From Candidatus Levybacteria bacterium RIFCSPHIGHO2_01_FULL_40_16 (GTDB taxonomy: Bacteria; Patescibacteriota; Microgenomatia; Levybacterales; UBA12049), in the NCBI GenBank assembly GCA_001783805.1, contig MFNS01000001.1, forward strand, positions 64,649 to 128,648: DNA of 64,000 nt, in the 5' to 3' direction. A model generated the notes under the pieces. That model was not told where the DNA came from. It made no database searches and worked only from the letters and a program-made list of their open reading frames with translations. Position numbers and translations under genes: made by a program. Every line of letters begins with the position of its first letter. The stretch's first letter is position 1. This document shows positions 1 to 52,214 of this stretch, piece after piece.

Positions 1-1
1 T

Positions 2-532
2 ACGTACCTCCCCGAGAAAAGAAAATTTATTCAGGAATACGTATTACCGCTAAAGGAAAAGTATAATCTCAGGCTTTACGGTAGGGATTGGACAGCTTTA
101 GATAGATTTTTAAATATTATTCATAGAGCTGGCCAATATTATAATATTCCCTATTTGAGGTCTTTTAAAAAATACAAACCAACGCTTGAAGAAGAAAGAC
201 AAATTCATCGTTCCTCAACTATCGCGCTTAATATACATGAAGATTATCAAAAAAAAGATTTAGGGGATTTAAATGAACGGACTTTCAAAATTCCCATTTC
301 CGGTGGATTTGAGATTGTTGACAATGTTCCATCTTTATCGAAGTATTTTAAAGACGGAGAGGAATTAATTATAGCCAAAGACAAAAAAGATTGGTTTGAA
401 AAAATTGATTATTACATTAGAAATCCCAATAAGCGTTTGCCGATTATTGAAGCCGGTAAAAAAAAGGTATTAAAAGACCATACTTATCACAATAGGGTAC
501 GCCAATTGCTTTCAATATACGAAGATCTTTAA
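2..532 (+). CDS. 5'-truncated glycosyltransferase, CgeB-like / GT1-family C-terminal region (DUF3880-like)
   Basis: The reading frame is open from window position 2 and the listed ORF 155..532 is its 3' part. The C-terminal motifs resemble spore-maturation CgeB-like glycosyltransferases. Confidence 0.45.
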   Translation, partial: TYLPEKRKFIQEYVLPLKEKYNLRLYGRDWTALDRFLNIIHRAGQYYNIPYLRSFKKYKPTLEEERQIHRSSTIALNIHEDYQKKDLGDLNERTFKIPISGGFEIVDNVPSLSKYFKDGEELIIAKDKKDWFEKIDYYIRNPNKRLPIIEAGKKKVLKDHTYHNRVRQLLSIYEDL

Positions 533-543
533 AGGTAAAAGTG

Positions 544-1755
544 CTAGATATATTTCTGAAGAAAAGAGGTAAAAACCTCCTGCATCTTCGATATGTGTTT
601 TTGAGTAAGTCCATGGTGGCAACCAACTAAGATGCTTTGTTCCATAACGGTATTGGTTGCTGGAAATTCGTTCTCGAAAGTCTTATGGGGAATGTTTCTA
701 AATCCCGGTTGTTTTAAAATATTACCGGTAAAGACCGGGCGTGTTTGAATATTATTTTTTTCAAGATAAGTTGCAAGGGTAAGTCTGGAAAAAGGAACCG
801 TTTTTTTGATTGTTAAAGGAAATGCCAGCCATTGTGTTTTTACTTTTGGATCTTGAACGGGCAGAATAAAATAATCTTCATATTTTTTGAAAAACCCATA
901 CAACGTCTGAAAATTTTCCTCTCTCGTTTTCTTAAACGTAGCTAATTTATCAAGCTGGGCGTTGCCAAAAGCAGCTCCCATCTCAAGAGGTAGAAAATTA
1001 TATCCGATTTCATCAAAAATGAATTTAGCATCATATTGTAAGCCTCCAATTTTTGCCTTAAAACGTTTCGTAATGTCTTCTGTGTCGCCGAAAATAGAGG
1101 AGCTGCGTCCCCAGCCGCGTAAAACTTTTGCTCTATCTTCCCATTCCTTCCTGTTAACCAGCAACATTCCTCCTCCACCCCCGGCAGTTATAATATGAGA
1201 TCCATAAAAGCTTGTGGTGGTAATATCGCCAAAAGCTCCACTCGGTTTGTCATTATATGTCGCCGCAAATGTATCGCAGGAATCAATAATGAAATTGAGG
1301 TTGTGCCTAATTGCGATTTCCGCCAAACGTTTTAAATTAGGAACATTTCCGATTAGAAGAGGAATCATAAGCAATTTTGTTTTACCGGTTATCGCTTTTT
1401 CAATAAGATCAATGTTAATATTATATTTTCCTTCCTCGACATCAATAAATACCGGGATCAATTTTTTTTGCACAATCGGCGCAACTGTGGTAGAGAAAGT
1501 AAGAAGAGGGGTAATTACTTCGGATCCTTCCGGAAGATTTAACAGCTCCAAAGCGACTAAATTTGCGGACGAACCCGAATTTACCATAACTCCGTATCTA
1601 TATCCAAATTCCTTTGCGACTCTACTTTCGAATTCCCCTGTTTCTTTACCTATGATAGTCCTGTGTTCGTCTAAAACTTTTATTACCCTTTGTTTTTCCA
1701 AATCATCATGAACAGCAGAGGCATAGCTTATACGTAATGAAGAATTATTAATCAT
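544..1755 (-). CDS. rfbH: DegT/DnrJ/EryC1/StrS-family PLP/PMP enzyme, probable CDP-6-deoxy-D-xylo-4-hexulose 3-dehydrase (E1)
   Basis: 403 aa with a DegT fold (GSSANLVALELL..., ...TTSFYGSHIITAGGGGGML...). The active-site lysine position (SFxxxK) holds His (SFYGSH), as in E1 dehydrases. It is co-operonic with rfbF/rfbG-like genes. Confidence 0.6.
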   Translation of the reverse strand: MINNSSLRISYASAVHDDLEKQRVIKVLDEHRTIIGKETGEFESRVAKEFGYRYGVMVNSGSSANLVALELLNLPEGSEVITPLLTFSTTVAPIVQKKLIPVFIDVEEGKYNINIDLIEKAITGKTKLLMIPLLIGNVPNLKRLAEIAIRHNLNFIIDSCDTFAATYNDKPSGAFGDITTTSFYGSHIITAGGGGGMLLVNRKEWEDRAKVLRGWGRSSSIFGDTEDITKRFKAKIGGLQYDAKFIFDEIGYNFLPLEMGAAFGNAQLDKLATFKKTREENFQTLYGFFKKYEDYFILPVQDPKVKTQWLAFPLTIKKTVPFSRLTLATYLEKNNIQTRPVFTGNILKQPGFRNIPHKTFENEFPATNTVMEQSILVGCHHGLTQKHISKMQEVFTSFLQKYI

Positions 1756-1810
1756 ATAACTTTCCGATCATAAGGATGAATCTTTGCTTTTGCAATAGTC
1801 AATAGGAGTA

Positions 1811-2263
1811 TTATTTCGATATTAAATCCCATGCGTATGGGACAATCGAATTATCCGCCGGACTTATGCGTTTAATTTCTTTTGGGTCATGTGGCACATC
1901 GGAGCAATTTGCAACAATTGCACTTTCTGTTCCTACTCCTTTAAATCCATTCCAAATCATTGGAGGAATAGTAATAAGAGCGTAATTAGTGTCACCTGTA
2001 AATATCTCCGTAAGTTCCCCTTTAGTCTTGGAATTTTTACGATCGTCATATAAGACAAGTTTTATAAGACCTTTAATAACTGCATAATGTAATGTCATTT
2101 TTGTATGAATGTGCCAGGCTTTAACTACTTGAGGATGCACTACGGAAAAATATATCTCACCAAATTTAACAAATTCAGGATCGTCGTTACGCAACATATG
2201 CATGACCATTCCCCGTTCGTCAGGAATTTTTTTAAGCGGCCTAATGATAACCCCATCAATCAT
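1811..2263 (-). CDS. RmlC-like cupin NDP-sugar epimerase/isomerase (AscE/FdtA-like)
   Basis: 150-aa cupin with similarity to the dTDP-4-dehydrorhamnose 3,5-epimerase-like family. It is embedded in the dideoxyhexose operon. Confidence 0.5.
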   Translation of the reverse strand: MIDGVIIRPLKKIPDERGMVMHMLRNDDPEFVKFGEIYFSVVHPQVVKAWHIHTKMTLHYAVIKGLIKLVLYDDRKNSKTKGELTEIFTGDTNYALITIPPMIWNGFKGVGTESAIVANCSDVPHDPKEIKRISPADNSIVPYAWDLISK

Positions 2264-2277
2264 AAAATAATTATAAA

Positions 2278-3195
2278 CTATTTATTGTAAAAAGCATATA
2301 CTTTTTTTAGACCTTCAAATAAATTTGTTTGCGGTTGCCAGCCGAGGATTTTTTTTGCCTTTTCAGAATTACAAACCATATACATAATTTCATTTTTCGG
2401 GTAGGGGGTGTCAAAGAGAATATCTATTTTCCTCTTGCTTATTTTTTCCAGCATTCCTACGATTTCTTTGGGAGAATAAGTATTAGCGGACCCAACATTA
2501 AAAACCTCGTATTTTTTATAATCGTCGGATGTTATAAATGCTAACGCTTTAATATATGCGTTAATGATGTCGCCGACATAGGTAAAATTTAAACGCTGTT
2601 CTCCTTTGGTTAAATTAAAAGATTTACTATGAATAAAAGACTTTATAAGTAGCGGAATAAGTTTTTCGTTATCTTTTTCTCCATAAGGAAAAAAAAGCTT
2701 TAATGTCAATGCCCGAAAATCACTTTTTGCGTAGTATTTTAAAATTTTTTCAAAAGCGATTTTAGTTGCTGCGTAATAGTTGTATGGTTCCAAAAGATCT
2801 GTTTCGACAAGTTTTTTCGTAGAAGGTTTATATTCAAAGCAGGTGCCGGTATTAATAAAAGCTTTTACGCCATTTTTTACCGCCAGATTAAGAAGTAGAG
2901 AGGGGAAAGTAATATTTGTAGCATTCATCGTTTCTATATCTCCTAAGCTCTTCTCGTTTCTAATATAATAGGTAGCTAAATGCATGATAATGTCAAAATG
3001 ATATTTTTCAAATATTTTGGGAAGGTCGCTGTAGGAATCGATAGATAAGAAAGAGACATTCTTCTGTAAATTTTCTAGACGGGAGATGCTAGGGGAAGAT
3101 CGCTTGAGAAGATAAAGTTTATGATCAAATACCTGAAGTTTTTCCACGAGGTTGCTGCCGATAAATCCTGTTGATCCCGTAATGAGAATATTCAT
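2278..3195 (-). CDS. NAD(P)-dependent epimerase/dehydratase-family reductase (CDP-4-keto-dideoxyhexose reductase-like)
   Basis: N-terminal Rossmann motif ITGSTGFIGSNL and an SDR fold of 305 aa. Operon context. Confidence 0.55.
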   Translation of the reverse strand: MNILITGSTGFIGSNLVEKLQVFDHKLYLLKRSSPSISRLENLQKNVSFLSIDSYSDLPKIFEKYHFDIIMHLATYYIRNEKSLGDIETMNATNITFPSLLLNLAVKNGVKAFINTGTCFEYKPSTKKLVETDLLEPYNYYAATKIAFEKILKYYAKSDFRALTLKLFFPYGEKDNEKLIPLLIKSFIHSKSFNLTKGEQRLNFTYVGDIINAYIKALAFITSDDYKKYEVFNVGSANTYSPKEIVGMLEKISKRKIDILFDTPYPKNEIMYMVCNSEKAKKILGWQPQTNLFEGLKKVYAFYNK

Positions 3196-3215
3196 ATCAA
3201 GTAAAATCTAAGTTT

Positions 3216-4190
3216 TTATACTTTTAAGATCTTTTTATAATAATCAAAGATATCCGGTAAGACTTTTTCTATTGTAAACTTAGGTTTCCAGCCTAATTGC
3301 TTTTTTGCTTTTGTATAATCAAGAGATTGATATGGGATTTCATTGACAGCGGTATCGAGTACCTTGCAAAAAACTTTCTTCTTAAGCGTTTTTTCCACAA
3401 TTTTTAAAACTTCAAACACCGACAGGGTTTCACTGGAGCCGAAGTTAAATGCTTCCCCTTTAGTTTTTTTGATATTTTGAGCCAGCTGTAAGTAGCCTTC
3501 GATAACGTCTCTGACGTAAAGATAGTCTCTGACATATTCTCCATTGCTTCTTATTTCAAGCGTTTTATTTTCGATAATCGATTTTATTGCCCCAGGTATA
3601 ATTCTTGAAAAATTTAGATCACCCTCGCCATAGACGTTTCCAAATCTGCTTATCGTGATCGGAAGATTATAAGTTACAAAGTAAGATTGAGAAATTAAAT
3701 CGGTGCAAGACTTTGATACATCATACGGATGGTCACCCCTTAGAGCATCATCCTCCAGATACTTTTTCTTCTTGAGTTTGCCATATGACTTATCAGATGA
3801 CGCAACAACAATAGCTTTTAAATTTTTCACTTTTCGGGCGGCTTCAAGAACGTTTACTGTTCCTATTAGATTACTTTCAAAAGTTTCGAGAGGATTCGCA
3901 TATGCGTAAGGAACAATAGTGATTGCTGCTATGTGAAAAATATAATCCGGCGTGTACTCTTTAAAAATTCTCAATAGCTCTTTTCCGTTCCGAATGTCTG
4001 TTTTTCTAAATATAGCTTTTCCCTCAAGTTTATTTATTGAGAATAGGGAATTTGGATCGTTTTCGATATCTATTACAATCACGCGCGCTTTTTGCCTTAC
4101 TAATTCTGTGACTAAATTACTGCCTATGAAGCCGGTTCCTCCGGTAACAATAATGGCTTTATTTGCAAGGGCTATTTCCATATTTTCCAT
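3216..4190 (-). CDS. rfbG: NDP-sugar 4,6-dehydratase, probable CDP-glucose 4,6-dehydratase
   Basis: Motifs VTGGTGFIGSN, SSDKSYG and YDVSKS (the YxxxK triad region). Size is about 325 aa and it lies immediately downstream of the rfbF-like gene. The start was chosen at the internal ATG (MENMEIAL...); the ORF track begins at an upstream GTG. Confidence 0.55.
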   Translation of the reverse strand: MENMEIALANKAIIVTGGTGFIGSNLVTELVRQKARVIVIDIENDPNSLFSINKLEGKAIFRKTDIRNGKELLRIFKEYTPDYIFHIAAITIVPYAYANPLETFESNLIGTVNVLEAARKVKNLKAIVVASSDKSYGKLKKKKYLEDDALRGDHPYDVSKSCTDLISQSYFVTYNLPITISRFGNVYGEGDLNFSRIIPGAIKSIIENKTLEIRSNGEYVRDYLYVRDVIEGYLQLAQNIKKTKGEAFNFGSSETLSVFEVLKIVEKTLKKKVFCKVLDTAVNEIPYQSLDYTKAKKQLGWKPKFTIEKVLPDIFDYYKKILKV

Positions 4191-4951
4191 GGGGGGTTTT
4201 GATCTTTCCACATGGCATTAAGATCTTCAAGCTCTTTATATGTGTCGACTGCAAACCAAAATCCTTCATGTCTGTAGAGAGAAAGTTGTTTAATTTTTGC
4301 CAATCTCCTGAATGCTTCATGTTCAAACTCGCCCGGCCGAAGATAGCTAAAAAAATTTCGTTTAAATACCATAAAGCCACCGTTGACCCAGTCGGACAAA
4401 ACAGGTTTTTCCGTGAACCCGCTAACTAACGAGTCATTTCTTACATTAACCAATCCGTACTTGGTTCGTGGGTGAACGCCTGAAATTGTGCCGATTGTTT
4501 TCTGTTTTTTGTGGAACGTGAGTAAACTTTTAATATTAAGATTGGTTACGCCGTCACCATATGTAACCATAAAATCCGTGTCTGTTTCAGGAATATATTT
4601 TTGACAGCGTAATATTCTTTCTCCTGGAAGAGTTTCAAGCCCCGTATCGACAAATGTAATTTTAAAATCGTCAAACTTAGTTCTATTTTCCAGATAATAT
4701 TTAGTGCTGTGCGACTTTGTATCAAGGGTAAAATCAGAGGTGAATGCTTTTTGGTTAAGAAAGAAATCTTTTATGTAATCTGCTTTGTAGCCGAGAGCAA
4801 AAATAAATTCATTAATTCCATAATGAGCATAGATTTTCATGATATGCCAAATTATTGGTTGGTTGCCGACATACACCATCGGTTTTGGCTTATATTCGCT
4901 TTCTTCTTTTAACCTCGTTCCGGCTCCACCGCAAAGAATAATAACTTTCAT
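4172..4951 (-). CDS. rfbF: glucose-1-phosphate cytidylyltransferase
   Basis: MKVIILCGGAGTRLKEESEYKPKPMV...GNQPIIWHIMKIY closely matches the RfbF/DdhA N-terminus. 259 aa. Confidence 0.75.
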   Translation of the reverse strand: MKVIILCGGAGTRLKEESEYKPKPMVYVGNQPIIWHIMKIYAHYGINEFIFALGYKADYIKDFFLNQKAFTSDFTLDTKSHSTKYYLENRTKFDDFKITFVDTGLETLPGERILRCQKYIPETDTDFMVTYGDGVTNLNIKSLLTFHKKQKTIGTISGVHPRTKYGLVNVRNDSLVSGFTEKPVLSDWVNGGFMVFKRNFFSYLRPGEFEHEAFRRLAKIKQLSLYRHEGFWFAVDTYKELEDLNAMWKDQNPPWKIWK

Positions 4952-5038
4952 GAGGAAAGTATAGCATTTATTCCCGTAAATCTCTACTGAATTATAAATA
5001 CCTATGATATACTTACGTTAAGTTTAATAAGTATATTT

Positions 5039-7333
5039 GTGAAAAAAACAACGTTTTTAATATTTTTAGGGTTCTTTGCTCTCTCAGTAATATTTTTTTA
5101 CATATCATTCCACCAGTTGAAAGGTAATCAATTTTATTTTATTGGAGACCAGTTTCTCAGGTTTTCCTATAACGAAACATTTATCAACTCATTTTTTATA
5201 CGAAGATGGGGAAATCTTGGTGTTCTGAATTGTTGGCAATTAATGATCCCGTTTTGGGATGTAATTTATTATTTAATTGCCTATAAGCTGGGTGCTTCTT
5301 TATTTTTTGTTGATAGGTTTTATTTTTTTATAGTAACTCCGATTTCTTTGGTAGCATCATTTATCGGATTTAAAAAAATTAGCGAGTTGGTGATCGGTAA
5401 AATTAATTTGGCTTGCGTTTTTGTAATAACACTTTGGTATTATATTAATCCTTATTCAGTCAGTTTATTCCATGGAGGGGGATATGGTTTTAGCGTAGCA
5501 TTTGCTTATTCATTCGCGCCATTAATAATTTATTATTTTCATGAAGCAATTTTTACAGAGTTTAAGATTAACAATGCAGTCATTTGCGCGCTGCTTCTTT
5601 TTTTTGCGTCATTCACGTTTTGGCTTTCTTCCCCGCTTGTGCTCACTTTAATTTTATACACTTTAATATTTACAGCGCTAAATCCAAAATTTATTAAAAG
5701 GGTATTGGCAAACGGCTTACGATTACTATTAATTTTCCTTCCCTTAATAAGCGTTTTTCTTTTTACCGTACTGTATGAATACTTTAACCATGCCGGAGAT
5801 AATAATGCAACTTTCATGCCTACCTTTGGTAACGAAATGGGAGGAATTTGGTATCAATTACTAATGCTATTTTCGTGGGGTATTTATAATGTTTGGACGC
5901 CTAGGGCTATGTATCCATTTTTTAGCTACTATTTTTCTGCGCCCTATATAATTTCCACACTTGCTGTATACGTAATTATACTCATCGGACTGCTAAGGTT
6001 TTGTAGCCCGGCTTATCGATTGATAAAAGTTTTTATATATCAAATGGGAAAATTGCTAACTCTACGAAAAAACAAAATTAAAGTTCAGCGAATATCTTAC
6101 CAAGCAAAAATAATAATAAGCGTGATCGGGTTATTTCTTATTTCCCTCTTTTTAGCTAAGGGACCGCAACCCCCTTTCGGTGAGGTATTCTTATTCCTTT
6201 ATAACAAGGTACCATTTTTTTCGGTTTTCAGAACTCCGGATATAAGATTTGGATTCATTATCGTATTGATGATTTCAATCATGTTAATTTTCGTATCAGC
6301 TTGGTATAAAAAAACAATATTTATTCCATTAATCATAATTATCATGCTAGTTCAGAGCACTAATTTTTTTAACGGCAATGTACTGCGTGGTGAGAATATC
6401 AAGGATTTATTTTATGAAAGAATTCTAGAAATACCAAGGGAGTATACCGATGTTGCAAATTATTTAAATAAACAAAAAGAACCATTTGGGTACATCTTTA
6501 CGTTACCTTCTCAAGCATATGGTCATTTTAGACTTGAAAAGGAAATCCATCATTTTGGTCAAGATATCCTGCAGAAATTAGTCAATGACCCCTCCCTGTA
6601 TCTTGATATGTCTGATGGAACAAGTAATAAAGCTTATACAGCAGTTGCCAACGTAATTAAAAATAAGGATTTTAAATCTATCGCTAAGTTTCCCATAAAA
6701 TATATAATTTTCAGAAAAGATGTGGTATGTGATGGGTGTAGCGATATAGCAATGAAGGATCTAGAAAAATATTTTAAGCTAGTATTCCAAAACGATTTAT
6801 TTTATGTCTACAAAGTTGATAGCTTCAGGCCGATAGTCGATTCTTCAAATATTACCTATCGGATTATAAATCCGACAAAAATTAAAGTTTACTTTCGAAA
6901 TGTCAAAAAGATTCAAGATTTCAGTTTGATGCTTAGTTTTAATAATGACTGGAAATTATATGTCACAAGTTACGCCAATAAATTAATCTGTAATGACGGG
7001 AAATTATACAGCCATCTTGATGTCCAAGAATGTTTTGCGGGATATAAATTTTTTGAGAATGAAGATTTATCTTATTTGTGGAGGAAGCAGATATTTCAAG
7101 ACAGTCATGAGCTTGAAGGTAATTATGCAAACAAATGGTTAATAGATCCGGCAACTATTAAAAAGGGAAATCCTCAAATGTATTCGGTGAATAAAGATGG
7201 TTCAATAAACTTTGAGTTAATTATCTATTATCAACCCCAATCCTGGTTTTATCTAACTTTCCTAATGTCATCCTTCTCTCTTGTTGTAATATGCATATTT
7301 TTATTACTAAAGCATAGAAGAAAATATGAATAA
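5039..7333 (+). CDS. polytopic membrane protein, GT-C-fold-like glycosyltransferase candidate with C-terminal extracytoplasmic domain
   Basis: 764 aa with at least 12 predicted TM segments and an acidic GDQF motif in the first loop. The conserved GPQPPFGE motif is shared with the paralog at 14627. It has a C-terminal soluble domain plus a terminal TM, and a GTG start. Confidence 0.45.
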   Translation: MKKTTFLIFLGFFALSVIFFYISFHQLKGNQFYFIGDQFLRFSYNETFINSFFIRRWGNLGVLNCWQLMIPFWDVIYYLIAYKLGASLFFVDRFYFFIVTPISLVASFIGFKKISELVIGKINLACVFVITLWYYINPYSVSLFHGGGYGFSVAFAYSFAPLIIYYFHEAIFTEFKINNAVICALLLFFASFTFWLSSPLVLTLILYTLIFTALNPKFIKRVLANGLRLLLIFLPLISVFLFTVLYEYFNHAGDNNATFMPTFGNEMGGIWYQLLMLFSWGIYNVWTPRAMYPFFSYYFSAPYIISTLAVYVIILIGLLRFCSPAYRLIKVFIYQMGKLLTLRKNKIKVQRISYQAKIIISVIGLFLISLFLAKGPQPPFGEVFLFLYNKVPFFSVFRTPDIRFGFIIVLMISIMLIFVSAWYKKTIFIPLIIIIMLVQSTNFFNGNVLRGENIKDLFYERILEIPREYTDVANYLNKQKEPFGYIFTLPSQAYGHFRLEKEIHHFGQDILQKLVNDPSLYLDMSDGTSNKAYTAVANVIKNKDFKSIAKFPIKYIIFRKDVVCDGCSDIAMKDLEKYFKLVFQNDLFYVYKVDSFRPIVDSSNITYRIINPTKIKVYFRNVKKIQDFSLMLSFNNDWKLYVTSYANKLICNDGKLYSHLDVQECFAGYKFFENEDLSYLWRKQIFQDSHELEGNYANKWLIDPATIKKGNPQMYSVNKDGSINFELIIYYQPQSWFYLTFLMSSFSLVVICIFLLLKHRRKYE

Positions 7334-7412: not shown

Positions 7413-9008
7413 ATGGTAAAAAATAAAAAACATGGTACCGTGTTACAACGTAATGTTTTTGTTGAGCTCTATAAAATAATTCTTGTTAAGAAGTTTATTA
7501 ATTTCATAACAAGCTTTGATTATATCGGCTTAATTTTTTTTCTCTGGAGTGTGACTATTTATCTTAGCCGTTGGATACCTTGCTACAATCTCTTAATTAA
7601 CATAGATCCTTTTGATGGGGCGTTGCGACTCGTTGCGGGGTTATATTCATCAGCATCTAATTTTAAAATTTATAATGATTTTGGCATTTTATATCCACCG
7701 GGACTTGTATTTCTTTATCAAACTTTTCACTTAAATTACACCTCGGCTTATCATTTCTTTTCATTGTTATTTTTGACGCTTACAATAGCGATTGTCTCGT
7801 TTGTTTATTACAAGACTAAATCGTTTTTCTTTTCAGGTATTTACGTGTTATTTCTTACTTGGCCTTTTTTGGTAACGAATGATCCTTTTACCGATATCGT
7901 CTGGACTATTTTTGCAACCCTGCTTCTTTTCTATCTAAAAGAAGGAGATAGGAAATATGTTTGGTTTATTATTGCAGCTGGTGTTGCCAGCATGTGGTTT
8001 AAATGGGAGAGAGTTGCAACATTGCTTGCTTTAAGCATCTTTGCATGCGTTGGTTTATATTTTATTAAATCCAAGTCGAAGGAATTGTTAAGTGCGGTTA
8101 AAATTTTAGGAGCTACAGCGGGTATCGGGCTTTTGTCTTTTTTAGTATATTTTGTTGCAAATTCAATTAATATCGCAAATGCATTGTATTTTATATTTAT
8201 TGTTCCTTTTAAAGTCGTTGCTTACAGAAAGATCACTCCTCCGCCATTAACACTTATAGAAGATTCAATTTTTTCTATCAACAATTTGTTATATCTTTGT
8301 TTTTTGCTGATCATTGTGTTATTCATTACGGTTGTTGCCCATAAGCTCTACGATAAAAAAATGCCTCTATATATTTTCCTGATTTTATTGCCGTTATCGC
8401 AAATCCCCTACGCTATCGGTAGGTCCGAAGCGGGACACCAAACACCATTATTTTTCACTATCTTAATGGTTTTAATTTTTTATTGTTATTTGGAAAAGAA
8501 AATAAAAGCAATTCTTATTTTTCCGGTTATATTTTATATCGTTGCCTGGGGTCTTCCTACGATTCACGGCTTGGATTATAGTTATTTAAAAGTAACACCT
8601 ACATATTTTGGGGTACTAAATGATTTCATTCAGGATTGTAGAAATAAAATAACAACCCAAGATTACAAAACGATATTTGTTGGTCGTACCGACTATAATC
8701 GCTATAGGTATAATGACGCGAGATTTTATTTAGTTAATATTTATGCCAAGCCGGCCACAAAATATATTAGCGATGAGCCGGGTTTGCAAAATAATTGTTA
8801 TGATGGGGGAAGAATCAGTCAAGATTTAACTAACGCGCAAAAACCTATGCTTGCGTTTATCGATTTTCATCCCGGCGCTCAAGGAACAGATCCAAATCCG
8901 GCTGCTGCGAATATGGTATCCTGCGGAAAAATAGAGAAATGGTTAATTGACCATCCTTACAAAAATTTGGGAGTCTGTAACGGACTTGAGATCCGCTTGT
9001 ATAAATGA
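7413..9008 (+). CDS. polytopic membrane protein, GT-C-like candidate
   Basis: 531 aa, multi-TM, with DPFDG in the first loop and a Cys-containing C-terminal soluble domain. Confidence 0.35.
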   Translation: MVKNKKHGTVLQRNVFVELYKIILVKKFINFITSFDYIGLIFFLWSVTIYLSRWIPCYNLLINIDPFDGALRLVAGLYSSASNFKIYNDFGILYPPGLVFLYQTFHLNYTSAYHFFSLLFLTLTIAIVSFVYYKTKSFFFSGIYVLFLTWPFLVTNDPFTDIVWTIFATLLLFYLKEGDRKYVWFIIAAGVASMWFKWERVATLLALSIFACVGLYFIKSKSKELLSAVKILGATAGIGLLSFLVYFVANSINIANALYFIFIVPFKVVAYRKITPPPLTLIEDSIFSINNLLYLCFLLIIVLFITVVAHKLYDKKMPLYIFLILLPLSQIPYAIGRSEAGHQTPLFFTILMVLIFYCYLEKKIKAILIFPVIFYIVAWGLPTIHGLDYSYLKVTPTYFGVLNDFIQDCRNKITTQDYKTIFVGRTDYNRYRYNDARFYLVNIYAKPATKYISDEPGLQNNCYDGGRISQDLTNAQKPMLAFIDFHPGAQGTDPNPAAANMVSCGKIEKWLIDHPYKNLGVCNGLEIRLYK

Positions 9009-9012: not shown

Positions 9013-9738
9013 TTAGTGTATCCTTTTTAGGTAACCGTTTGGATTGAATGTGAGGAGATATTTTTCCCGACTTATGTCAGAGATAAATTGATTATTTGTT
9101 TTTTTAAACTCAGTAAGTGCTTCCATTGGTCCCGGACCATGCTCTTTAAATACAGGGTGACCATTAACGTTTGTGTCCTCAACAATAATATAGCTTCCTT
9201 TTGTAACGAACCCACTGTAGGCCTTAAGTTCTTTAAGGACATATTCAGCAGTATGATTCGAATCGAGTACCGCTAATACTTTATCGTTTTTGTGAATAGA
9301 TTTTTTTATTTTTTCAAGTACGGTTTCATCTATTGACGAACCGGAAATGTACTTAATTCTTTTATGTTTTGGTAAATTTGGCCATTTGTTAATATCAACA
9401 GTAACTATTTTTCCTTTTCCAAGAAAATCGCAAAGACAGGCCATGTAATAAGTGCTTCCTCCGCTTGCGGTGCCGGTTTCTATAATGACATCGGGTTTAA
9501 CATCGTAAATAATGTCTTGAAATATGTGTAGATCAAGCGGACACTTCTGTACGGGAATGCCGAAAAAGTATGTATCATGCCATGTTTTTCCTTGGGTGTG
9601 GGAATCATAATAAAGGTTGTGAAATCTGTCTATAATTTGTTGTTTTTTTTGAGGTTGTACAGAGAAGTTTAAAAATTCAAGCAGTTTTTTTATTCTATAT
9701 TGGATTCTTTTTGCGTATCGTAAAATTGTATTGGACAT
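9013..9738 (-). CDS. CmcI-family (cephalosporin-hydroxylase-like) SAM-dependent O-methyltransferase
   Basis: VIIETGTASGGSTYYMA...IVTVDIN is typical of the CmcI / rhamnosyl-O-methyltransferase family. 241 aa. Confidence 0.6.
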   Translation of the reverse strand: MSNTILRYAKRIQYRIKKLLEFLNFSVQPQKKQQIIDRFHNLYYDSHTQGKTWHDTYFFGIPVQKCPLDLHIFQDIIYDVKPDVIIETGTASGGSTYYMACLCDFLGKGKIVTVDINKWPNLPKHKRIKYISGSSIDETVLEKIKKSIHKNDKVLAVLDSNHTAEYVLKELKAYSGFVTKGSYIIVEDTNVNGHPVFKEHGPGPMEALTEFKKTNNQFISDISREKYLLTFNPNGYLKRIH

Positions 9739-9860: not shown

Positions 9861-10922
9861 GTGAAATCATTCTACAGCGGAAAGAAAATCTTGGTTACCG
9901 GAGGAGCAGGATTCATAGGATCAGCGCTAATAGATGAATTAATTCGCCTTGGAGCAGAAACTACGATTGGAGATAACCTGTCTACGGGGAGTTTAAAAAA
10001 CGTCTTTCGAGTATGGAATAAGCATGGGTTTTTCTGCAAAAAAAACTCAAAAGGATACACGACAAATAATAAACATAAGCTTGTTCTCGTAGATTTTCAA
10101 GATTTTGAGAAAACGCGAGATCTTTTGAAAGGATATGAAATTGTGCTCCATCTGGCTGCCAATATTGGAGGAAGAGGATATATTGATACTCATCCGGGGG
10201 ATTGTTGTGAGGGATTCTCCGTTAATCAAAACGTAATAAAAGCTGCTCACTTGGCAAACGTTGATAGGATTCTTTTCGCATCGTCAGCCTGTGTATATCC
10301 CAACGACCTGCAAAAAAATTACGGTTCGGAATATCTCTTAAAAGAAGAGGACGCGATTAAAAATAACTGGGGCAATGCGGACAAAGAATATGGCTGGGCA
10401 AAACTAATGGGTGAAATTACTCTCCAGGGATACAATAAGCAATATGGGCTAAAAGGAGTTAGCACCCGATATGTTACGGCGTACGGCCCATGGGAAAATG
10501 ACACGCATGCAATTATTGCTTTAATTCGTAGGGCAGTGGAAAAGAACGATCCGTATGTTATCTGGGGAAGCGGAAAACAAGACAGGGATTTCACTTACGT
10601 TGACGACATCGTTTCAGGAACACTTGCGGCGTGCGAGAAAATTACTGATGCATCCAGCATAAATTTGGGAACAAGTGTACGTTATACGATGAGAGAATCC
10701 GTAGATATTATTTTCGATATTCTAAATTGGAAACCCAAAAAAATTGTTTGCGATAAAACTAAACCTGAAGGAGTTAAGACGAGAGCATTAGATATTAAAA
10801 GGGCAAAAAAAGTATTGAACTGGAAACCCAAATACACCTTGCGTATAGGGCTTGCTAAAACAATTGAATGGTTTTTGAAGGAAAAGCCCAGAACAGTAGA
10901 TCCCCTATTGAGACATGGATAA
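9861..10922 (+). CDS. NAD-dependent NDP-sugar epimerase/dehydratase
   Basis: ILVTGGAGFIGSAL Rossmann motif and SDR-extended fold. GTG start. Confidence 0.55.
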   Translation: MKSFYSGKKILVTGGAGFIGSALIDELIRLGAETTIGDNLSTGSLKNVFRVWNKHGFFCKKNSKGYTTNNKHKLVLVDFQDFEKTRDLLKGYEIVLHLAANIGGRGYIDTHPGDCCEGFSVNQNVIKAAHLANVDRILFASSACVYPNDLQKNYGSEYLLKEEDAIKNNWGNADKEYGWAKLMGEITLQGYNKQYGLKGVSTRYVTAYGPWENDTHAIIALIRRAVEKNDPYVIWGSGKQDRDFTYVDDIVSGTLAACEKITDASSINLGTSVRYTMRESVDIIFDILNWKPKKIVCDKTKPEGVKTRALDIKRAKKVLNWKPKYTLRIGLAKTIEWFLKEKPRTVDPLLRHG

Positions 10923-11688: not shown

Positions 11689-12504
11689 ATGGAACAGGGG
11701 GAAAAAATTATTGCCAATCAGGAGGAATTTTTTAATCAGAATGCCCAGTCTCAAAAAATTCCTACAAGAGAATCGTTATTTACAACCTACGCAAATAAAG
11801 AACAAATAAATGGTTTTTTATGGATAGAGAATCAAAGAAAGATACTGGAATATGGCTGCGGAACAGGAACGTCGTTGGACATTTTTTTTAAAAATAGACA
11901 GAGGAATAAATATAAAATTTGTGGAGTAGATATTGCGCAATTAGCAATAGATAAAGCAAAAGAAAATTATCCACAATTTAATTTTTATAAGATTTCTAAT
12001 AATAAAATTCCGCAAATTAAAAACGATAGTCTTGATGCGGTATTTATGTTTCACGTATTACACCATGCGGATAAGTACCAAGAAATATTTAGAGAAATTC
12101 ACAAAAAAACGAAAAAGGGAGGAAGATTTTTAATTAATGATCTAACTTCAAATAACCCTTTTAATAAATTAGCCAGATTAATTTTTATTTTTATGCCAAA
12201 TTTTGTAAAAAGAAAGTTTGGGGATGACTTGGTGGTGGGGGAGAGTATTCCGAAAAAAAATAAAGTTAGTCCCGAGAAGATAAGGGTTCAGCTGGAAGAA
12301 GTTAGATTCGAGATTCAAGAGATGGGATACGGGCACTTATTCTTTTTTGTTTTTGGTTGGCTTGATAGATTTATTCCTTTTTCCAAAGTTACCTTCGTAC
12401 GTTTTTTTTACAAAAAACTTATAAGCTTAGAGAAGGCTCTTCTAAGATATACGTTTTTTCAGAACGGGGCTGAAGTATTTTATATCAAATGTATAAAAAA
12501 ATAA
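11689..12504 (+). CDS. class I SAM-dependent methyltransferase
   Basis: LEYGCGTGTSL motif I. Preceded by a sigma70-like promoter. Confidence 0.55.
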   Translation: MEQGEKIIANQEEFFNQNAQSQKIPTRESLFTTYANKEQINGFLWIENQRKILEYGCGTGTSLDIFFKNRQRNKYKICGVDIAQLAIDKAKENYPQFNFYKISNNKIPQIKNDSLDAVFMFHVLHHADKYQEIFREIHKKTKKGGRFLINDLTSNNPFNKLARLIFIFMPNFVKRKFGDDLVVGESIPKKNKVSPEKIRVQLEEVRFEIQEMGYGHLFFFVFGWLDRFIPFSKVTFVRFFYKKLISLEKALLRYTFFQNGAEVFYIKCIKK

Positions 12505-13577: not shown

Positions 13578-14624
13578 ATGCAAAATAACATTTTACTTAC
13601 GGTTGCTATCCCAACGTATAATCGTTCAGAAACTCTTGAAAAAATTCTTGTGCAATTACGCAAGGAAAGTAATCAGAATTTTCTTATTTTAATTTCGGAC
13701 GACAATTCTTCCGATAAAACTTCAGAAATGGTAAAAAAATATCAGAAGTCCATGCATAATTTGATCTATCATAAAAACAACGAAAACTTGGGCTTCAGCG
13801 AAAATGTATTTAAGCTTTATGAATTAACAAAGACGCAATATATGTGGTTTCTTTGTGATGATGACATACCATTATCAGGCTCAATTGAAAATATCCTAAA
13901 CGCAATCAATAAGTATAAACCGGTTGTAGCACTTTTTAATTGTACGTGGGTAAATTCATACGGACAGAAATTAACGTCAGGTGTAAAAGAAGACATTTTA
14001 TACAAGGATTTAGACTCCTTTACAAGTTATGATGCTTTGATGAGGCTGGGATATTTATCTGTTAATGTTTTTAAAAAGAAGAAATCCATAGTCTCTTTAA
14101 GAAATGTGCCATACAAAGATAACGTTTTCTTTCAAGTAACCCTAGCGCTTTTATTACTAAGTAAAGAATTTAGATTTCTAGAGGTCGCAAAAAGTATTGT
14201 TAAAAGAAATGTGGGCTTTAAATATGGTGATTTTTTTAAATTTAATGTAATAGACATGATAAAAGCAGTTTCCATTATTCCCCATAAATTTGACAATAAT
14301 GAGTTTATTCGCCAGTCTAAGAAGAATGCTTTCTTAGCATTGCAACTTTACCTTTCACAAAAATTAGGATTATTTCAATTTGACCTTAAGCCAACCAGAG
14401 ATACGAAACAAAAAATATTCAAGTACTACGGTTTATTGTATGGTTATTTCTTTCTATCCTTCCCGTTCATTAAGCGCGTTGTCCCTACTTTTATTCTCAA
14501 GCAAATTTATTTAATTAAATTACTTCAAGTACATGGGTTTAAAAAAGGAAAAAAAGTCTACAAAAGAAATATTAATCGTGCATATAAGGATACGAGAAAA
14601 ACAAAATTTACAGCGTATCAGTAA
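13578..14624 (+). CDS. GT2-family glycosyltransferase (tandem paralog)
   Basis: AIPTYNRSETLEKIL...ILISDDNSSDKT. Tandem paralog of the gene at 12489. Confidence 0.55.
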   Translation: MQNNILLTVAIPTYNRSETLEKILVQLRKESNQNFLILISDDNSSDKTSEMVKKYQKSMHNLIYHKNNENLGFSENVFKLYELTKTQYMWFLCDDDIPLSGSIENILNAINKYKPVVALFNCTWVNSYGQKLTSGVKEDILYKDLDSFTSYDALMRLGYLSVNVFKKKKSIVSLRNVPYKDNVFFQVTLALLLLSKEFRFLEVAKSIVKRNVGFKYGDFFKFNVIDMIKAVSIIPHKFDNNEFIRQSKKNAFLALQLYLSQKLGLFQFDLKPTRDTKQKIFKYYGLLYGYFFLSFPFIKRVVPTFILKQIYLIKLLQVHGFKKGKKVYKRNINRAYKDTRKTKFTAYQ

Positions 14625-14626
14625 AT

Positions 14627-16858
14627 ATGAAGAATTTATTTTCCAGATATACCTTAAAGCTTCATTTTTTTCTGTCATTGCTTATAACAGCCTTATTGTC
14701 GGTAATTATTTTTCGAGGAATTGGTAATAATCAATTTCTTTTTATTCACGATGAGTTTCTCATATTTTCTCGTCAGGAGGCAAACTCACTTCTTTTTCTA
14801 AAATCACTAAATAATCTTGGTATTTCCAATGTTACAACTGTGCTTGTTACTTTTTATGATCAGCTATATTATCTAATAACTTACAGTTTAGGATTAAGTT
14901 TGCATTCGGTTCAGCTAATTCTTTATATCTTCAAGATTTTTACATTAGTTTTTGTTCCATTTGTTGGTTTTAAAAGATTATCATCTTTATACTTAAAAGA
15001 AAATCAAAATTTTGTCACACTTGCAATCTCACTTTGGTATACCTTCAATCCTTTCACCCTGCTTAATTGGAATGGGGGATTTTCTTTAACCACCTTTATT
15101 CTTTATGCTTTTGCGCCTTTGTGTCTATTTTTTTATCATAAGGCGATTATAAGGAGAAGTGGTCTTCGCTATAAATTGCTGGCAGCTATTTTTTTGTTTT
15201 TACTTTCTTTCCTGATATATCTTTTTGCGGTTTTTATTATGGCAATAGCTATCTATACGGTTTTCCATATGTTTTCAAAAAGAAATATAAAATTAATAAT
15301 TAAAAATGTTATTCAGACAGGCTTACTGTGCTTGCCGCTTTTTTCTATCCTTATTGTTCTCTCTTTAGATTTTACAAGAAGTTCAATAGTGTCGCCTGCA
15401 TCCCTGGCTGGTGAGACAGCCGGTAATATAGCGGGTGGATTTTTTTATCCAATTCTCCTTTGGTTTTCCTGGGGGATTTATACTGTTTGGGAACCAAGAA
15501 ATATACAAACATTTTACGAATACTTTTCCAGCATACCATATATAATTTCAGTTTTAACTCTTTATGTATTGATACTAAGAGGGATTTATAGAAAAAAAGA
15601 TTTTTATTCTTTGGTATTTTTTTCAATTTTTCTTGTTTTCCTTTTCTTCGTTAAGGGGCCCCAGCCTCCTTTTGGGGAGATATATAACTTTTTCATAAAA
15701 AACGTACCGCTATTTATTCTCTTTCGGTCACCGGATAATAAATTTGGCTTCGGGATAATATTTATACTTGCCTTATTACTTTTGCAGATTTCAACGCAGT
15801 ATAAAGAGAAATTGTTTGTTGGTTTATTGTTATTAATAATGCTTATTCAATCTTTTCCGTTATTTACGGGAGTTGCGGTTTGGGGTGAAAATACAAAGCA
15901 ATCTTGGGACAGAATTATTACTATCCCAAAACAAGATGAAGATTTGACGTCATTTATTAATACGCATAATGTTCCTTTTGGATACGTTATGCCACTTCCT
16001 GCGTCTTCGTACGCCCAGTACTGGTTAGGAAAAAATAAACTATTTATCGGTCAAGACTTATTGCCTAAACTAAGCAATTTGCCATTCATATATTTGGAAA
16101 AAAATGGCATACTGCCATTATCGGTGTATACTTCAATTACGCGCAGATTAGAAAATAATAAAAACGGGCAAAACATTACACCAATTAAATATTTTCTTTT
16201 AAGAAATGATATCAGAAAAACTCCCCCGACTAATAATATGCAAAAAAACATTGTGTCTCGTGAAGCTCTTGTTTTTAAAACTGACTCTTTCGAGCTTTAC
16301 AAAAATGATAATGCTGTTCCCTTATTGTACGCAGATAGCGGCTTAGCTTATGAAATGGTTAATCCCGTAAGATACAACATTCATTTTGCTAACCTGAAAG
16401 AACCGGTCAATCTGTATTTTAATCAAAATTTTGATAAAGATTGGAAAATATTTCTTGCGCCAATTGAAGAAAATGCTTGTAAGCAAGCGGTTTACATAGC
16501 TAAATTTAATGTTAGAGAATGTCAAAGTCATTTTTCAAGATTCTTCTTTCAAGATGTTAAGTATGCTTTCATAAATTCGCTATTCGATTCTTCGCACACA
16601 TTGCTTAATGGTTATGCGAACGTTTGGAAAATATCTCCCAAGGTATTGCTGAATTCAGCTGCCTCGCAAAACATTACTATTAATAAAGATAATTCCATTA
16701 ATTTCACTTTAACAATATTCTATCAGCCTCAAAGCTATTTTAATCTTGGTATAATAGCAACAACCATTACCCTTTCTTTATATATATTCGTAATTCTCAT
16801 ACCGAATAAGAATGAAAAAAGAAATTCTAAAAACCATCAAAAGTTAAAGCACGAATGA
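14627..16858 (+). CDS. polytopic membrane GT-C-like protein (paralog of 5039..7333)
   Basis: 743 aa. HDEF acidic motif in loop 1 and a shared VKGPQPPFGE...FRSPDNKFGFG block with the 5039 gene. The C-terminal domain ends ...IFYQPQSYF + TM, mirroring the 5039 C-terminus (IYYQPQSWF). Confidence 0.45.
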   Translation: MKNLFSRYTLKLHFFLSLLITALLSVIIFRGIGNNQFLFIHDEFLIFSRQEANSLLFLKSLNNLGISNVTTVLVTFYDQLYYLITYSLGLSLHSVQLILYIFKIFTLVFVPFVGFKRLSSLYLKENQNFVTLAISLWYTFNPFTLLNWNGGFSLTTFILYAFAPLCLFFYHKAIIRRSGLRYKLLAAIFLFLLSFLIYLFAVFIMAIAIYTVFHMFSKRNIKLIIKNVIQTGLLCLPLFSILIVLSLDFTRSSIVSPASLAGETAGNIAGGFFYPILLWFSWGIYTVWEPRNIQTFYEYFSSIPYIISVLTLYVLILRGIYRKKDFYSLVFFSIFLVFLFFVKGPQPPFGEIYNFFIKNVPLFILFRSPDNKFGFGIIFILALLLLQISTQYKEKLFVGLLLLIMLIQSFPLFTGVAVWGENTKQSWDRIITIPKQDEDLTSFINTHNVPFGYVMPLPASSYAQYWLGKNKLFIGQDLLPKLSNLPFIYLEKNGILPLSVYTSITRRLENNKNGQNITPIKYFLLRNDIRKTPPTNNMQKNIVSREALVFKTDSFELYKNDNAVPLLYADSGLAYEMVNPVRYNIHFANLKEPVNLYFNQNFDKDWKIFLAPIEENACKQAVYIAKFNVRECQSHFSRFFFQDVKYAFINSLFDSSHTLLNGYANVWKISPKVLLNSAASQNITINKDNSINFTLTIFYQPQSYFNLGIIATTITLSLYIFVILIPNKNEKRNSKNHQKLKHE

Positions 16859-19119: not shown

Positions 19120-19141
19120 TATTACGATGAGTATCTAAAAT

Positions 19142-20236
19142 ATGAAAATTTCTTTTAATCGGTTCGTAGCATTTGGAATAACCCCTTTCTTATTGATGTT
19201 TCTTTGGCTTATTCTTTCGTTATTTTTTGCATCGAAATACAGCCTATCCGTTATTAGCGTAGCTTATAATAAAACAAGCTTAGTTTCTTTAAAAACAGAC
19301 GAATTGCTCGCAAAACAAAAAGTATCCGCTCGATTTCGGGCAATAGCAAATAATTTAGGCATAGTCTCTGTTCGATTCAAAACTTATGGTAGAATTAATA
19401 ATGACGAAGTTGTCTTTAGGCTAAGAGAAGAAGGTAAAAAGAATTGGTACTACGACCACACATATAGAGTTGATCAATTCCAGGACGATGATTATTTTAC
19501 TTTCGGATTACCCATTATTTCAAATTCAGAAGGCAAAACATACTATTTTGAAATAGAGTCAACCAAGGGAAAAAGGGGTGACGCCGTTTCAATCAGCGCA
19601 ACATCTCCTGTTTTTATTACACAATATCAATTTACTAAACAGAAGCTTCTGGCGAACAAGACAATAATTCCAGATTTCTTAATAAAGAAAATACACTATT
19701 CATTTAGCGATATAAATTTCACTATATCAGCTTTTATATATGCTCTTCCTTTTCTTTTTTATATGCTTTGGTTTTTTTATTTTAAAAAATATTTACCACC
19801 TATTCAAATAAAAAACTTAATAGTTAAATATAAAATGTACGTATCTCCCGATAATTACATTTTGCTTTATGTCTACATTTTTGTCTTTATATTAAGTATA
19901 TTTTTCAAAAACAAAATACTTTTGTCGGAGGAGATAATACTTATTTTCCTTTGGCTCGGATTAATTAGGATATATATACTTCATAGTAGCGTTACCTTCT
20001 TTTTAGCTCTAGCATCCTTATCTATCTCTCCTATTTTTCTCATTCTTAATTCGGAAATCATTGCGGAGAATGCTGCTATGTGGGCATATCTATTTTTGTT
20101 AATCGGGACGATTCAAGCTATTTATGGACTTTATAAAAAGGCACAGCCCTTACGAGCTATACAACTATTATTGCGAGAGCTTTCAGATAACAGATATTTT
20201 AAAAAAATTAAGAAAGTTTGGGATAGACTTCCTTAA
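19142..20236 (+). CDS. membrane protein with extracytoplasmic domain and C-terminal 4-TM bundle (possibly GtrA-like)
   Basis: 364 aa with an N-terminal TM, a soluble domain (LGIVSVRF...YYFEIES) and then about 4 TM helices. Clear paralog of the gene at 21952. Confidence 0.35.
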   Translation: MKISFNRFVAFGITPFLLMFLWLILSLFFASKYSLSVISVAYNKTSLVSLKTDELLAKQKVSARFRAIANNLGIVSVRFKTYGRINNDEVVFRLREEGKKNWYYDHTYRVDQFQDDDYFTFGLPIISNSEGKTYYFEIESTKGKRGDAVSISATSPVFITQYQFTKQKLLANKTIIPDFLIKKIHYSFSDINFTISAFIYALPFLFYMLWFFYFKKYLPPIQIKNLIVKYKMYVSPDNYILLYVYIFVFILSIFFKNKILLSEEIILIFLWLGLIRIYILHSSVTFFLALASLSISPIFLILNSEIIAENAAMWAYLFLLIGTIQAIYGLYKKAQPLRAIQLLLRELSDNRYFKKIKKVWDRLP

Positions 20237-20356
20237 GGAGTAACGGAGTGCCATCTTAAATCCCCAATAATAAAGTTGAAAGTAGCGTACAGCATGACGT
20301 ATCCTTGATTTTGTATTTGTATTAATGGACAATGGAATTAGATTTTTGGACAATAC

Positions 20357-24515: not shown

Positions 24516-24534
24516 GGTAGTTAATTAAGCGCGG

Positions 24535-26274: not shown

Positions 26275-26275
26275 T

Positions 26276-26304
26276 TTGTTAAATAATAATTCTTACTATA
26301 TAAT
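26276..26304 (+). promoter_or_regulatory. sigma70-like promoter TTGTTA-N17-TATAAT in the 60-bp divergent region between PMT-like paralogs
   Basis: -35 at 26276–26281 and -10 at 26299–26304. It drives the + gene starting at about 26335. Confidence 0.4.
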
Positions 26305-26334
26305 ATAGGTCAACTCTAATTGTACCACCATTAT

Positions 26335-29765: not shown

Positions 29766-29811
29766 TTTCTTGAAATTTGGCTATGAAACGTAGAAATGAT
29801 AGAATTAGCTT

Positions 29812-45614: not shown

Positions 45615-45617
45615 ACT

Positions 45618-46292: not shown

Positions 46293-46303
46293 TCTATCTG
46301 CAG

Positions 46304-46344: not shown

Positions 46345-46357
46345 CCATCATTAAGGG

Positions 46358-48882: not shown

Positions 48883-48895
48883 CTGCGTTTTGGTG

Positions 48896-52211: not shown

Positions 52212-52214
52212 TAT

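Follow-up and report, generated by a model that had tools for sequence, protein, structure and literature searches.

We analyzed a five-gene operon that probably makes a cytidine diphosphate (CDP)-linked 3,6-dideoxy sugar and that ends in a DegT-family protein, a predicted sugar 3-dehydratase without an iron-sulfur (Fe-S) site. It lies in a 64,000-nucleotide (nt) stretch of the Candidatus Levybacteria bacterium RIFCSPHIGHO2_01_FULL_40_16 genome (assembly GCA_001783805.1, contig MFNS01000001.1, positions 64,649 to 128,648; hereafter the window, in whose coordinates features are given). As the original prediction had it, five co-directional open reading frames (ORFs) are packed head to tail on the minus strand at 544–4951. 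From first to last, these encode a predicted glucose-1-phosphate cytidylyltransferase of the RfbF/DdhA type (4172–4951; 259 amino acids [aa]), a short and divergent extended short-chain dehydrogenase/reductase (SDR) predicted to be a CDP-D-glucose 4,6-dehydratase (3216–4190; 324 aa), a second extended SDR (2278–3195; 305 aa), a cupin of the family of Protein Data Bank (PDB) entry 3EJK (1811–2263; 150 aa), and the DegT-family protein itself (544–1755; 403 aa). The 324-aa SDR has an alternative GTG start at 4211 that would yield 331 aa, while gene callers favor the ATG. A 19-nt overlap between the first two genes is followed by gaps of 20, 14, and 55 nt, and a convergent gene terminates 11 nt downstream; by every structural criterion, the five genes form an operon. 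Its probable promoter region is the 87-bp divergent intergenic stretch (4952–5038) that separates it from a plus-strand gene for a 764-aa membrane protein (5039–7333). A single sigma-70-like minus-strand site at 4986–4958 (TAGAGA-17-TATACT with TG) is weak evidence for such a promoter: a consensus scan of positions 1–5300 gave no excess of promoter and terminator sites over shuffled sequence, and promoter-like sites near the operon were not enriched (20 versus 19.3).

C-3 deoxygenation of CDP-sugars is the textbook task of E1, a radical enzyme that employs pyridoxamine 5′-phosphate (PMP) and a [2Fe-2S] cluster and requires its own reductase, E3. The 403-aa DegT protein—identical to one from the uncultured groundwater organism Candidatus Levybacteria bacterium RIFCSPLOWO2_01_FULL_39 (GCA_001782525.1), a member of the candidate phyla radiation (CPR), and also present on several metagenome contigs—belongs to the fold type I aminotransferase family (Pfam DegT PF01041, 240 bits). 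In the PDB it matched E1 (3BCX; 232 bits, ~37% identity) ahead of ColD (170 bits, ~30% identity), and its AlphaFold model (mean pLDDT 89) gave TM values of 0.88 to E1 3BCX and 0.83 to ColD. Against the NCBIfam model NF011936 (RfbH) it scored 345.3 bits, under the equivalog cutoff of 423. In place of the Schiff-base lysine stands His187 (CAT, 1195–1197, minus strand), preceded by Ser186 in the motif SFYGSH (residues 182–187), just as had been read from the sequence beforehand. His187 aligns with E1 His220, where the sequence of the H220K mutant (3BB8) has Lys. Around SFY, the HMMER alignment to ColD slipped by one residue; when the motifs of E1 and ColD, together with that of perosamine synthase, were compared without gaps, His187 fell on ColD His188, which belongs to the catalytic pair Ser187-His188 according to the titles of entries 3GR9 and 3B8X. 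Since the query and its 120 close homologues all have His instead of Lys, the protein is supported as a predicted sugar 3-dehydratase and not an aminotransferase, in line with the original prediction. The latter had gone further and taken this histidine as the hallmark of E1, which did not hold, as ColD and SpnQ carry it too: the residue is common to all three enzymes, and a four-cysteine [2Fe-2S] site is what sets E1 and SpnQ apart (PMC8987622).

Counted along 3BCX, the cluster cysteines of E1 are C193, C251, C253, and C261. The DegT protein has C, S, I, and I at these positions, and a check of the [2Fe-2S] ligands by alignment consequently fails, with the equivalent of C193 alone remaining. 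The E1 motif was reportedly given by Agnihotri et al. in 2004 as C-X57-C-X-C-X7-C, a spacing that agrees with the 3BCX numbering and with conservation in 61 Fe-S-type representatives (see below). The loop RGWGRSSSIFGDTEDITKRF (residues 213–232; 1060–1119, minus strand), homologous to the E1 loop that holds three of the four cysteines, contains none, and the whole protein has only two (C160 and C379). Because three of the four [2Fe-2S] cysteines are gone and so few cysteines are left, the DegT protein would not be an E1/DdhC/AscC in the mechanistic sense.

The cysteine loss appears to be a trait of the family rather than a local defect. Among the best 120 DegT homologues (64–100% identity, mostly from Patescibacteria or metagenome contigs), His187 is kept throughout, with Ser before it in 118 and Ala in 2, and all 120 have zero cysteines in the loop and no lysine nearby. 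A search of 1.84 billion cluster representatives returned 704 relatives with E ≤ 1e-30, the best 150 of which were aligned. Every sequence with a residue at the His220 column carries His there (150 of 150; 148 representatives, the query, and E1). Neighbor-joining ordering of the 137 near-full-length sequences (135 representatives, the query, and E1) separated 62 of Fe-S type, which group with E1, from 68 cluster-free ones including the query and seven with a ColD-like loop. The query sits among the cluster-free sequences, and the closest representative of Fe-S type is 40–42% identical to it; one of the seven ColD-like representatives scores 288 bits to ColD, versus 170 for the query. C251, C253, and C261 are conserved in 61 Fe-S-type representatives, 58 of which have C193 too, and position 257 is variable; since exactly these cysteines are conserved in the Fe-S group, the ligand set of E1 is thereby defined independently. 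Ser-His predominates in cluster-free and ColD-like sequences and Ala-His in Fe-S types. The equivalent of C193 is Ala in 14 of 87 cluster-free representatives. We also considered a cluster held by non-cysteine ligands, and rejected it because the cluster-free clade as a whole has no conserved cysteine. The query thus appears to belong to a large, uncharacterized cluster-free clade that combines a sequence and modeled fold closer to E1 than to ColD with the Ser-His pair of ColD. In some cluster-free relatives, the 3-dehydratase is joined to an SDR domain, an RmlC-like domain, or both—never, among the family representatives examined, to an E3-type reductase—and the fused SDR domains score best against the Pfam families of guanosine diphosphate (GDP)-mannose 4,6-dehydratase and NAD-dependent epimerase/dehydratase.

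Close cluster-free homologues (65–67% identical) in other genomes adjoin split transketolase genes (our loci L008, 9205–10937; L015, 8202–9916; L016, 2241–3928 and 10216–12039), and L016 additionally has a YerE-like thiamine diphosphate (ThDP) enzyme near its homologue. These ThDP enzymes would take a 3,6-dideoxy-4-keto sugar as acceptor, as happens in yersiniose biosynthesis, and such neighborhoods hint that CPR bacteria make yersiniose-like, branched-chain 3,6-dideoxy sugars. Several 3-dehydratase homologues (P0179, P0205, P0212, P0223, P0226, P0258, and P0128) measure 650–890 aa owing to intein-like insertions. In the six Fe-S-type proteins among them, an insert of ~380 aa lies exactly within the cluster-binding loop (RDWGR.C|...HN|C.C). 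The cluster-free P0128 has its insert at ~163–428 (weak Pfam matches to Intein_splicing, 33.1 bits, cutoff 35.8, and Hint_2, 31.5 bits, cutoff 28.4), close to the conserved DSC(D) cysteine according to alignment coordinates.

Matches of the first two proteins support the proposal that the operon is built on CDP-glucose. The best NCBIfam model for the 259-aa protein is TIGR02623 (261.7 bits, cutoff 300; next family 82 bits), and its match to the Salmonella glucose-1-phosphate cytidylyltransferase (PDB 1TZF) covers the full length at 180 bits, the runner-up in the PDB scoring 65 bits. For the 324-aa SDR, the top model is TIGR02622, CDP-glucose 4,6-dehydratase (223.6 bits, cutoff 278), followed by deoxythymidine diphosphate (dTDP)-glucose dehydratase (182 bits). 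Along its entire length, this protein shares 34% identity with HS41.20, a characterized CDP-glucose 4,6-dehydratase of Campylobacter jejuni, and its catalytic motifs SSDKSY (residue 131) and YDVSK (residue 156) correspond in alignment to TSDKCY and YSNSK of 1RKX, the Yersinia enzyme. CDP-glucose 4,6-dehydratases are marked by the fingerprint [ST]DK...Yx3K, an Asp/Lys acid-base pair, whereas dTDP and uridine diphosphate (UDP) enzymes carry [ST]DE and the GDP enzyme [ST]SE (PMC8987622, Table 1). The 324-aa SDR bears the CDP-type fingerprint—Asp-Lys, not the Asp-Glu of dTDP or the Ser-Glu of GDP enzymes—as was to be expected had the dehydratase been correctly placed outside the dTDP and GDP types. 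Its VIVIDIEND segment at the end of beta-2 suggests that it binds NAD+.

The 305-aa SDR shows YAATK at residue 141 and, at residue 29, LLKRSS with its basic residues after beta-2, contrasting with the acidic residue at this place in the 324-aa dehydratase. Basic residues after beta-2 together with YxxxK are typical of NADPH-dependent SDR reductases. The protein shares 28% identity (91 bits) over its full length with HS41.18 of C. jejuni, which has been characterized as an NADPH-dependent CDP-4-keto-6-deoxyhexose C4-reductase; no curated NCBIfam family scored above cutoff, and a homologue search returned generic names only. We predict that it acts as an NADPH-dependent C-4 ketoreductase on a CDP-4-keto sugar. 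Least certain of the gene assignments is the 150-aa cupin. It scored 38 bits against Pfam PF00908 dTDP_sugar_isom (cutoff 27), 19 bits against TIGR01221 (cutoff 156), and 136 bits against PDB 3EJK, an entry labeled ‘dTDP sugar isomerase’, with true RmlC enzymes reaching only ~24 bits. The family is strongly conserved (120 homologues at 65–100% identity, with W50-H51-x-H53 invariant) and was found always inside the same cassette. Its His51 aligns with the RmlC histidine, but HMMER and BLAST put that histidine on different residues. Because of the constant cassette membership and the precedent of the C. jejuni pathway, we predict by analogy that the cupin is a C-5 (or C-3/C-5) epimerase.

All five families also occur together in a genome with the same gene order and a cluster-free 3-dehydratase 66% identical to ours (L014, GCA_964625535.1), as well as in L018 (GCA_002329205.1) and in Thermoanaerobacterium thermosaccharolyticum (L017, 5302–9864, GCA_002238085.1). 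In the latter two cassettes, the DegT member is of the Fe-S type, with the motifs SFYPAHH or SFYPAHQ plus RDWGRDCWC..GKDNTCG.RF. Orthologues of the 305-aa SDR are present in every cassette copy (43–51% identity), and the cytidylyltransferase shares 70–71% identity with its counterpart at the head of the L014 and L018 cassettes. Synteny between the window and L018 extends past the cassette, with identities of 71% for the cytidylyltransferase, 53% for the dehydratase, 48% for the second SDR, 69% for the cupin, and 66% for a flanking glycosyltransferase; the 3-dehydratases, by contrast, are just 36% identical, and in L018 the gene lies mid-cassette. The high identity of the neighbors set against the low identity of this one enzyme therefore places both enzyme types in the same pathway slot, and one 3-dehydratase type has displaced the other inside an orthologous pathway. 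This exchange is the strongest evidence we have, and it argues that the cluster-free enzyme would carry out the same net step, C-3 deoxygenation of CDP-4-keto-6-deoxyglucose.

The absence of a [2Fe-2S] E3 partner from the window, remarked on from the outset, extends to 10 kb on either side: across this region, no Fer2, FAD_binding_6, or NAD_binding_1 domain was found in called genes, and the plant-type ferredoxin motif CX4CX2C...C is absent from ORFs of at least 150 aa. Nor was an E3-type reductase found near the close homologues examined. As the DegT enzyme would have no [2Fe-2S] site, the lack of E3 is what one would expect and not a puzzle; the enzyme would hold nothing for E3 to reduce. 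By itself, the absence of a nearby E3 does not discriminate between the enzyme types. A contig search with the DegT protein gave three distant loci (35–38% identity), two of which, L005 and L006, are of Fe-S type and have no adjacent ferredoxin-motif ORF either. The Fe-S-type cassettes in L017 and L018 likewise have no E3 nearby, in L017 none within 7 kb.

With moderate confidence, we favor a ColD-like mechanism in which glutamate drives the C-3 deoxygenation of CDP-4-keto-6-deoxyglucose, with epimerization and reduction as the subsequent steps. The cytidylyltransferase would turn glucose-1-phosphate into CDP-D-glucose, which the 324-aa SDR with its SDK motif would dehydrate to CDP-4-keto-6-deoxy-D-glucose. 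At this point, the DegT enzyme would take off the C-3 hydroxyl, His187 serving as acid/base on the PMP-sugar ketimine. As there is no [2Fe-2S] site, the 3,4-ene intermediate could not be reduced by E3-type electron transfer; instead, the enamine would be hydrolyzed to CDP-4-keto-3,6-dideoxyglucose and ammonia, and L-glutamate would regenerate PMP from pyridoxal 5′-phosphate (PLP). Such turnover with PLP and L-glutamate and no reductase is established for ColD and for C. jejuni HS5.12, the HS:5 C3-dehydratase (PMC8987622, PMC10680097), and ColD structure 2R0T captures the PLP-glutamate adduct. The key deoxygenating enzyme should thus not need an E3 reductase. Next, the small cupin would epimerize C-5 and the NADPH-type SDR would reduce C-4; the result would be an ascarylose-type 3,6-dideoxyhexose of the L-series (ascarylose itself or the C-4 epimer). 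Were the cupin not to epimerize, the product would be of the D-series, e.g., paratose or abequose. We assign the stereochemistry of the product with low confidence. The resulting CDP-3,6-dideoxyhexose would feed the large surface-glycan island that surrounds the operon.

Several points weigh against this proposal. All three matches to CDP-pathway families (TIGR02623, TIGR02622, and RfbH) stay under the curated NCBIfam cutoffs, and the corresponding proteins appear to be divergent members rather than textbook orthologues. The 324-aa SDR scores about equally against CDP-tyvelose 2-epimerase, CDP-glucose dehydratase, dTDP-glucose dehydratase, and GalE in the PDB; because these scores do not separate CDP, dTDP, and epimerase types, we took its class, and with it the predicted nucleotide specificity, from the catalytic fingerprint. 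The epimerase activity of the cupin is a prediction, and the position of the RmlC catalytic acid, a Tyr, aligns to Ala118. The glutamate dependence put forward for the clade is an argument by analogy. Finally, both the sequence (232 versus 170 bits) and the fold (TM 0.88 versus 0.83) of the DegT protein put it closer to E1 than to ColD, and ColD-like chemistry would hence have to be convergent or ancestral.

The last of these points also speaks for another, albeit unlikely, explanation, in which an E1-like C-3 dehydration is followed by reduction of the PMP-bound 3,4-ene, either by a reductant encoded elsewhere or by a partner SDR with NAD(P)H—a mechanism that would be neither that of E1/E3 nor that of ColD. 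The cysteine-free loop is as long as the cluster loop of E1 and retains its WGR...RF anchors, SpnQ relies on general cellular reductases in place of a dedicated E3 (PMC8987622), and the want of a nearby E3 in the Fe-S-type cassettes of L017 and L018, as well as the SDR-domain fusions in some cluster-free relatives, can be read in the same way. However, the enzyme would have no redox centre and there is no known path by which single electrons could reach the PMP-glucoseen; across the cluster-free clade not one cysteine is conserved, position 193 itself being Ala in 14 of 87; and the fused SDRs resemble, by their best Pfam scores, the dehydratase that precedes or the reductase that follows this step. 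Slimmer still is the chance of a broader scenario, in which the cluster-free E1-related clade constitutes a third mechanistic class of C-3 deoxygenase (e.g., with a partner SDR reducing the PMP-glucoseen directly with NAD(P)H), has repeatedly displaced the Fe-S E1 in the CDP-dideoxysugar cassettes of CPR bacteria, and supplies an undescribed, possibly O-methylated 3,6-dideoxy-L-hexose to surface glycans.

We regard a genuine ColD role for the DegT protein as quite improbable; in this reading, it would use GDP-4-keto-6-deoxymannose and yield GDP-colitose together with an Fcl/ColC-like SDR and a ManC-like gene, its CDP neighbors being incidental. Such a role would be compatible with the missing Fe-S motif and the ColD-like Ser-His pair, and candidate partner genes are not far away: a GDP-fucose-synthase-like SDR (291 bits) lies ~4 kb past the left end of the window, and the island holds the ManC-like gene (44532–45614), with a GT11 family transferase near. 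Yet the DegT gene closes a tight co-directional operon opened by a cytidylyltransferase and partnered with CDP-type proteins, the five-gene cassette recurs in three other genomes (with the 3-dehydratase mid-cassette in L018), and no GDP-mannose 4,6-dehydratase was found in the ~84 kb examined. Scoring 170 bits to ColD, as against 232 to E1 and 288 to ColD for the genuine ColD-like representative, the protein is no ColD orthologue. Least probable of all is a C-4 aminotransferase or another PMP-dependent product, making a 4-amino-4,6-dideoxy sugar beside a CDP-6-deoxyhexose from the cupin and the reductase: SpnQ without reductase does transaminate with PLP and glutamate (PMC8987622), and the other four genes match the CDP-6-deoxyhexose pathway of C. 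jejuni HS:41 (PMC12369002), but the catalytic lysine is missing in 120 of 120 close homologues, ColD and E1 do not transaminate in this way and not even the H220K variant of E1 is catalytic (PMC8987622), and Fe-S-type 3-dehydratases in the same slot of orthologous cassettes point to deoxygenation as the selected function.

The glycan-biosynthesis island in which the operon lies spans the window from its start to ~46 kb and continues for at least 10 kb beyond the left end. It contains many glycosyltransferases, methyltransferases, a flippase, PMT-family proteins, and large membrane proteins without a Pfam match, and is followed by housekeeping genes (recO, a tRNA synthetase gene, mraZ, a penicillin-binding protein gene, mur genes, and glmS). 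G+C content is 31–33% in the island core (14000–30000) versus 38–43% in the housekeeping part (44000–64000), a pattern usual for variable surface-polysaccharide loci. Three methyltransferase genes had been claimed for the window, and we located them at 9013–9738 (minus strand), 11689–12504, and 30743–31342. The first is of the CmcI family and resembles rhamnosyl O-methyltransferase (NCBIfam NF045824, 148 bits, cutoff 400); together with the other two, it could methylate the sugar or the glycan.

About ten large genes of the island, encoding 364–1054 aa, have no Pfam match or a faint one (Wzy_C, PMT_2): 5039–7333, 7413–9008, 14627–16858, 16855–19119, 19142–20236, 20357–21952, 21931–24515, 24535–26274, 28059–29765, and 35479–38643. 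They could be uncharacterized glycosyltransferases or polymerases, and the translations of the first two look like polytopic membrane proteins. There seems to be a second, GDP-based sugar route as well, judging from a plus-strand SDR gene at 9861–10922 (SSACVYP motif; GDP-mannose 3,5-epimerase/Fcl-like, 144 bits), the ManC-like guanylyltransferase gene at 44532–45614 (plus strand), and, left of the window, the genes for the Fcl/ColC-like SDR (L001, 15556–16488; 291 bits) and the GT11 family transferase (L001, 13148–13963).

Returning to the cluster-free 3-dehydratase, our analysis suggests that many uncultured bacteria would make CDP-3,6-dideoxyhexoses with a cluster-free, reductase-independent relative of E1, the two enzyme types having been swapped within otherwise orthologous cassettes. 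The apparent puzzle of an E1 without an E3 dissolves once the enzyme holds no site for E3 to act on. If confirmed, this would allow “RfbH/E1” annotations in metagenomes to be corrected, as the two types can be told apart by the loop cysteines and by whether Ser or Ala precedes the histidine. It would likewise offer an oxygen-insensitive single-enzyme route to CDP-4-keto-3,6-dideoxyglucose for chemoenzymatic synthesis, and it would be concrete evidence of an investment in rare surface sugars by CPR bacteria with their small genomes.

Among known systems, the DegT protein has its best solved-structure match in E1 (DdhC/RfbH/AscC of Yersinia and Salmonella; 3BCX), with which it shares the catalytic histidine, the cofactor motifs SGSSAN and D-x-C-D, a loop of equal length between WGR...RF anchors, and a genetic context of cytidylyltransferase and CDP-type 4,6-dehydratase. 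In the E1/E3 route, the PMP-glucoseen is reduced by two one-electron transfers via iron-sulfur clusters. The window protein differs from E1 in having lost three of the four [2Fe-2S] cysteines, in having no E3 nearby, in reading Ser-His for Ala-His-His, in staying under the RfbH cutoff (345 versus 423), and in grouping with cluster-free sequences and not with the Fe-S block of E1. SpnQ, the thymidine diphosphate (TDP)-4-keto-2,6-dideoxyglucose 3-dehydrase of spinosyn biosynthesis, is likewise a His-type 3-dehydratase without a dedicated E3 in its cluster (PMC8987622); unlike the window protein, it retains the [2Fe-2S] motif and relies on general ferredoxin/flavodoxin reductases.

ColD (E. coli O55, 2GMS) and the C. 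jejuni HS:5 enzyme resemble the window protein in having no cluster and a Ser-His pair, and the order of the HS:5 pathway—4,6-dehydratase, PLP/L-glutamate 3-dehydratase, C5-epimerase, and NADPH C4-reductase (PMC10680097)—matches in its later steps the logic predicted for our operon. They differ in using GDP-manno-configured substrates and in having an xHGW-type loop, whereas the window protein falls in a separate clade and stands in a CDP-glucose context. The HS:41 pathway of C. jejuni (HS41.21, HS41.20, HS41.19, and HS41.18) parallels the remaining genes, with a cytidylyltransferase, a dehydratase, a cupin epimerase whose substrate is a CDP-4-keto sugar, and an NADPH-dependent C4-reductase, but it has no 3-dehydratase and ends in a pyranose-furanose mutase (PMC12369002); moreover, its epimerase is a standard RmlC-like enzyme only 25% identical (29 bits) to the window cupin. 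The characterized types thus comprise E1, which works on CDP-sugars with an Fe-S cluster and E3; SpnQ, on TDP-sugars with an Fe-S cluster and general reductases; and ColD and HS5.12, which are cluster-free and act on GDP-sugars (PMC8987622, PMC10680097). In the limited collection of literature searched, we found no characterized cluster-free CDP-sugar 3-dehydratase. Cluster-free C-3 deoxygenation is not a new principle, as ColD and the C. jejuni enzyme already perform it on GDP-sugars; what is new here is a large, unstudied, E1-related cluster-free clade that resides in CDP-dideoxyhexose cassettes and is interchangeable there with the Fe-S E1.

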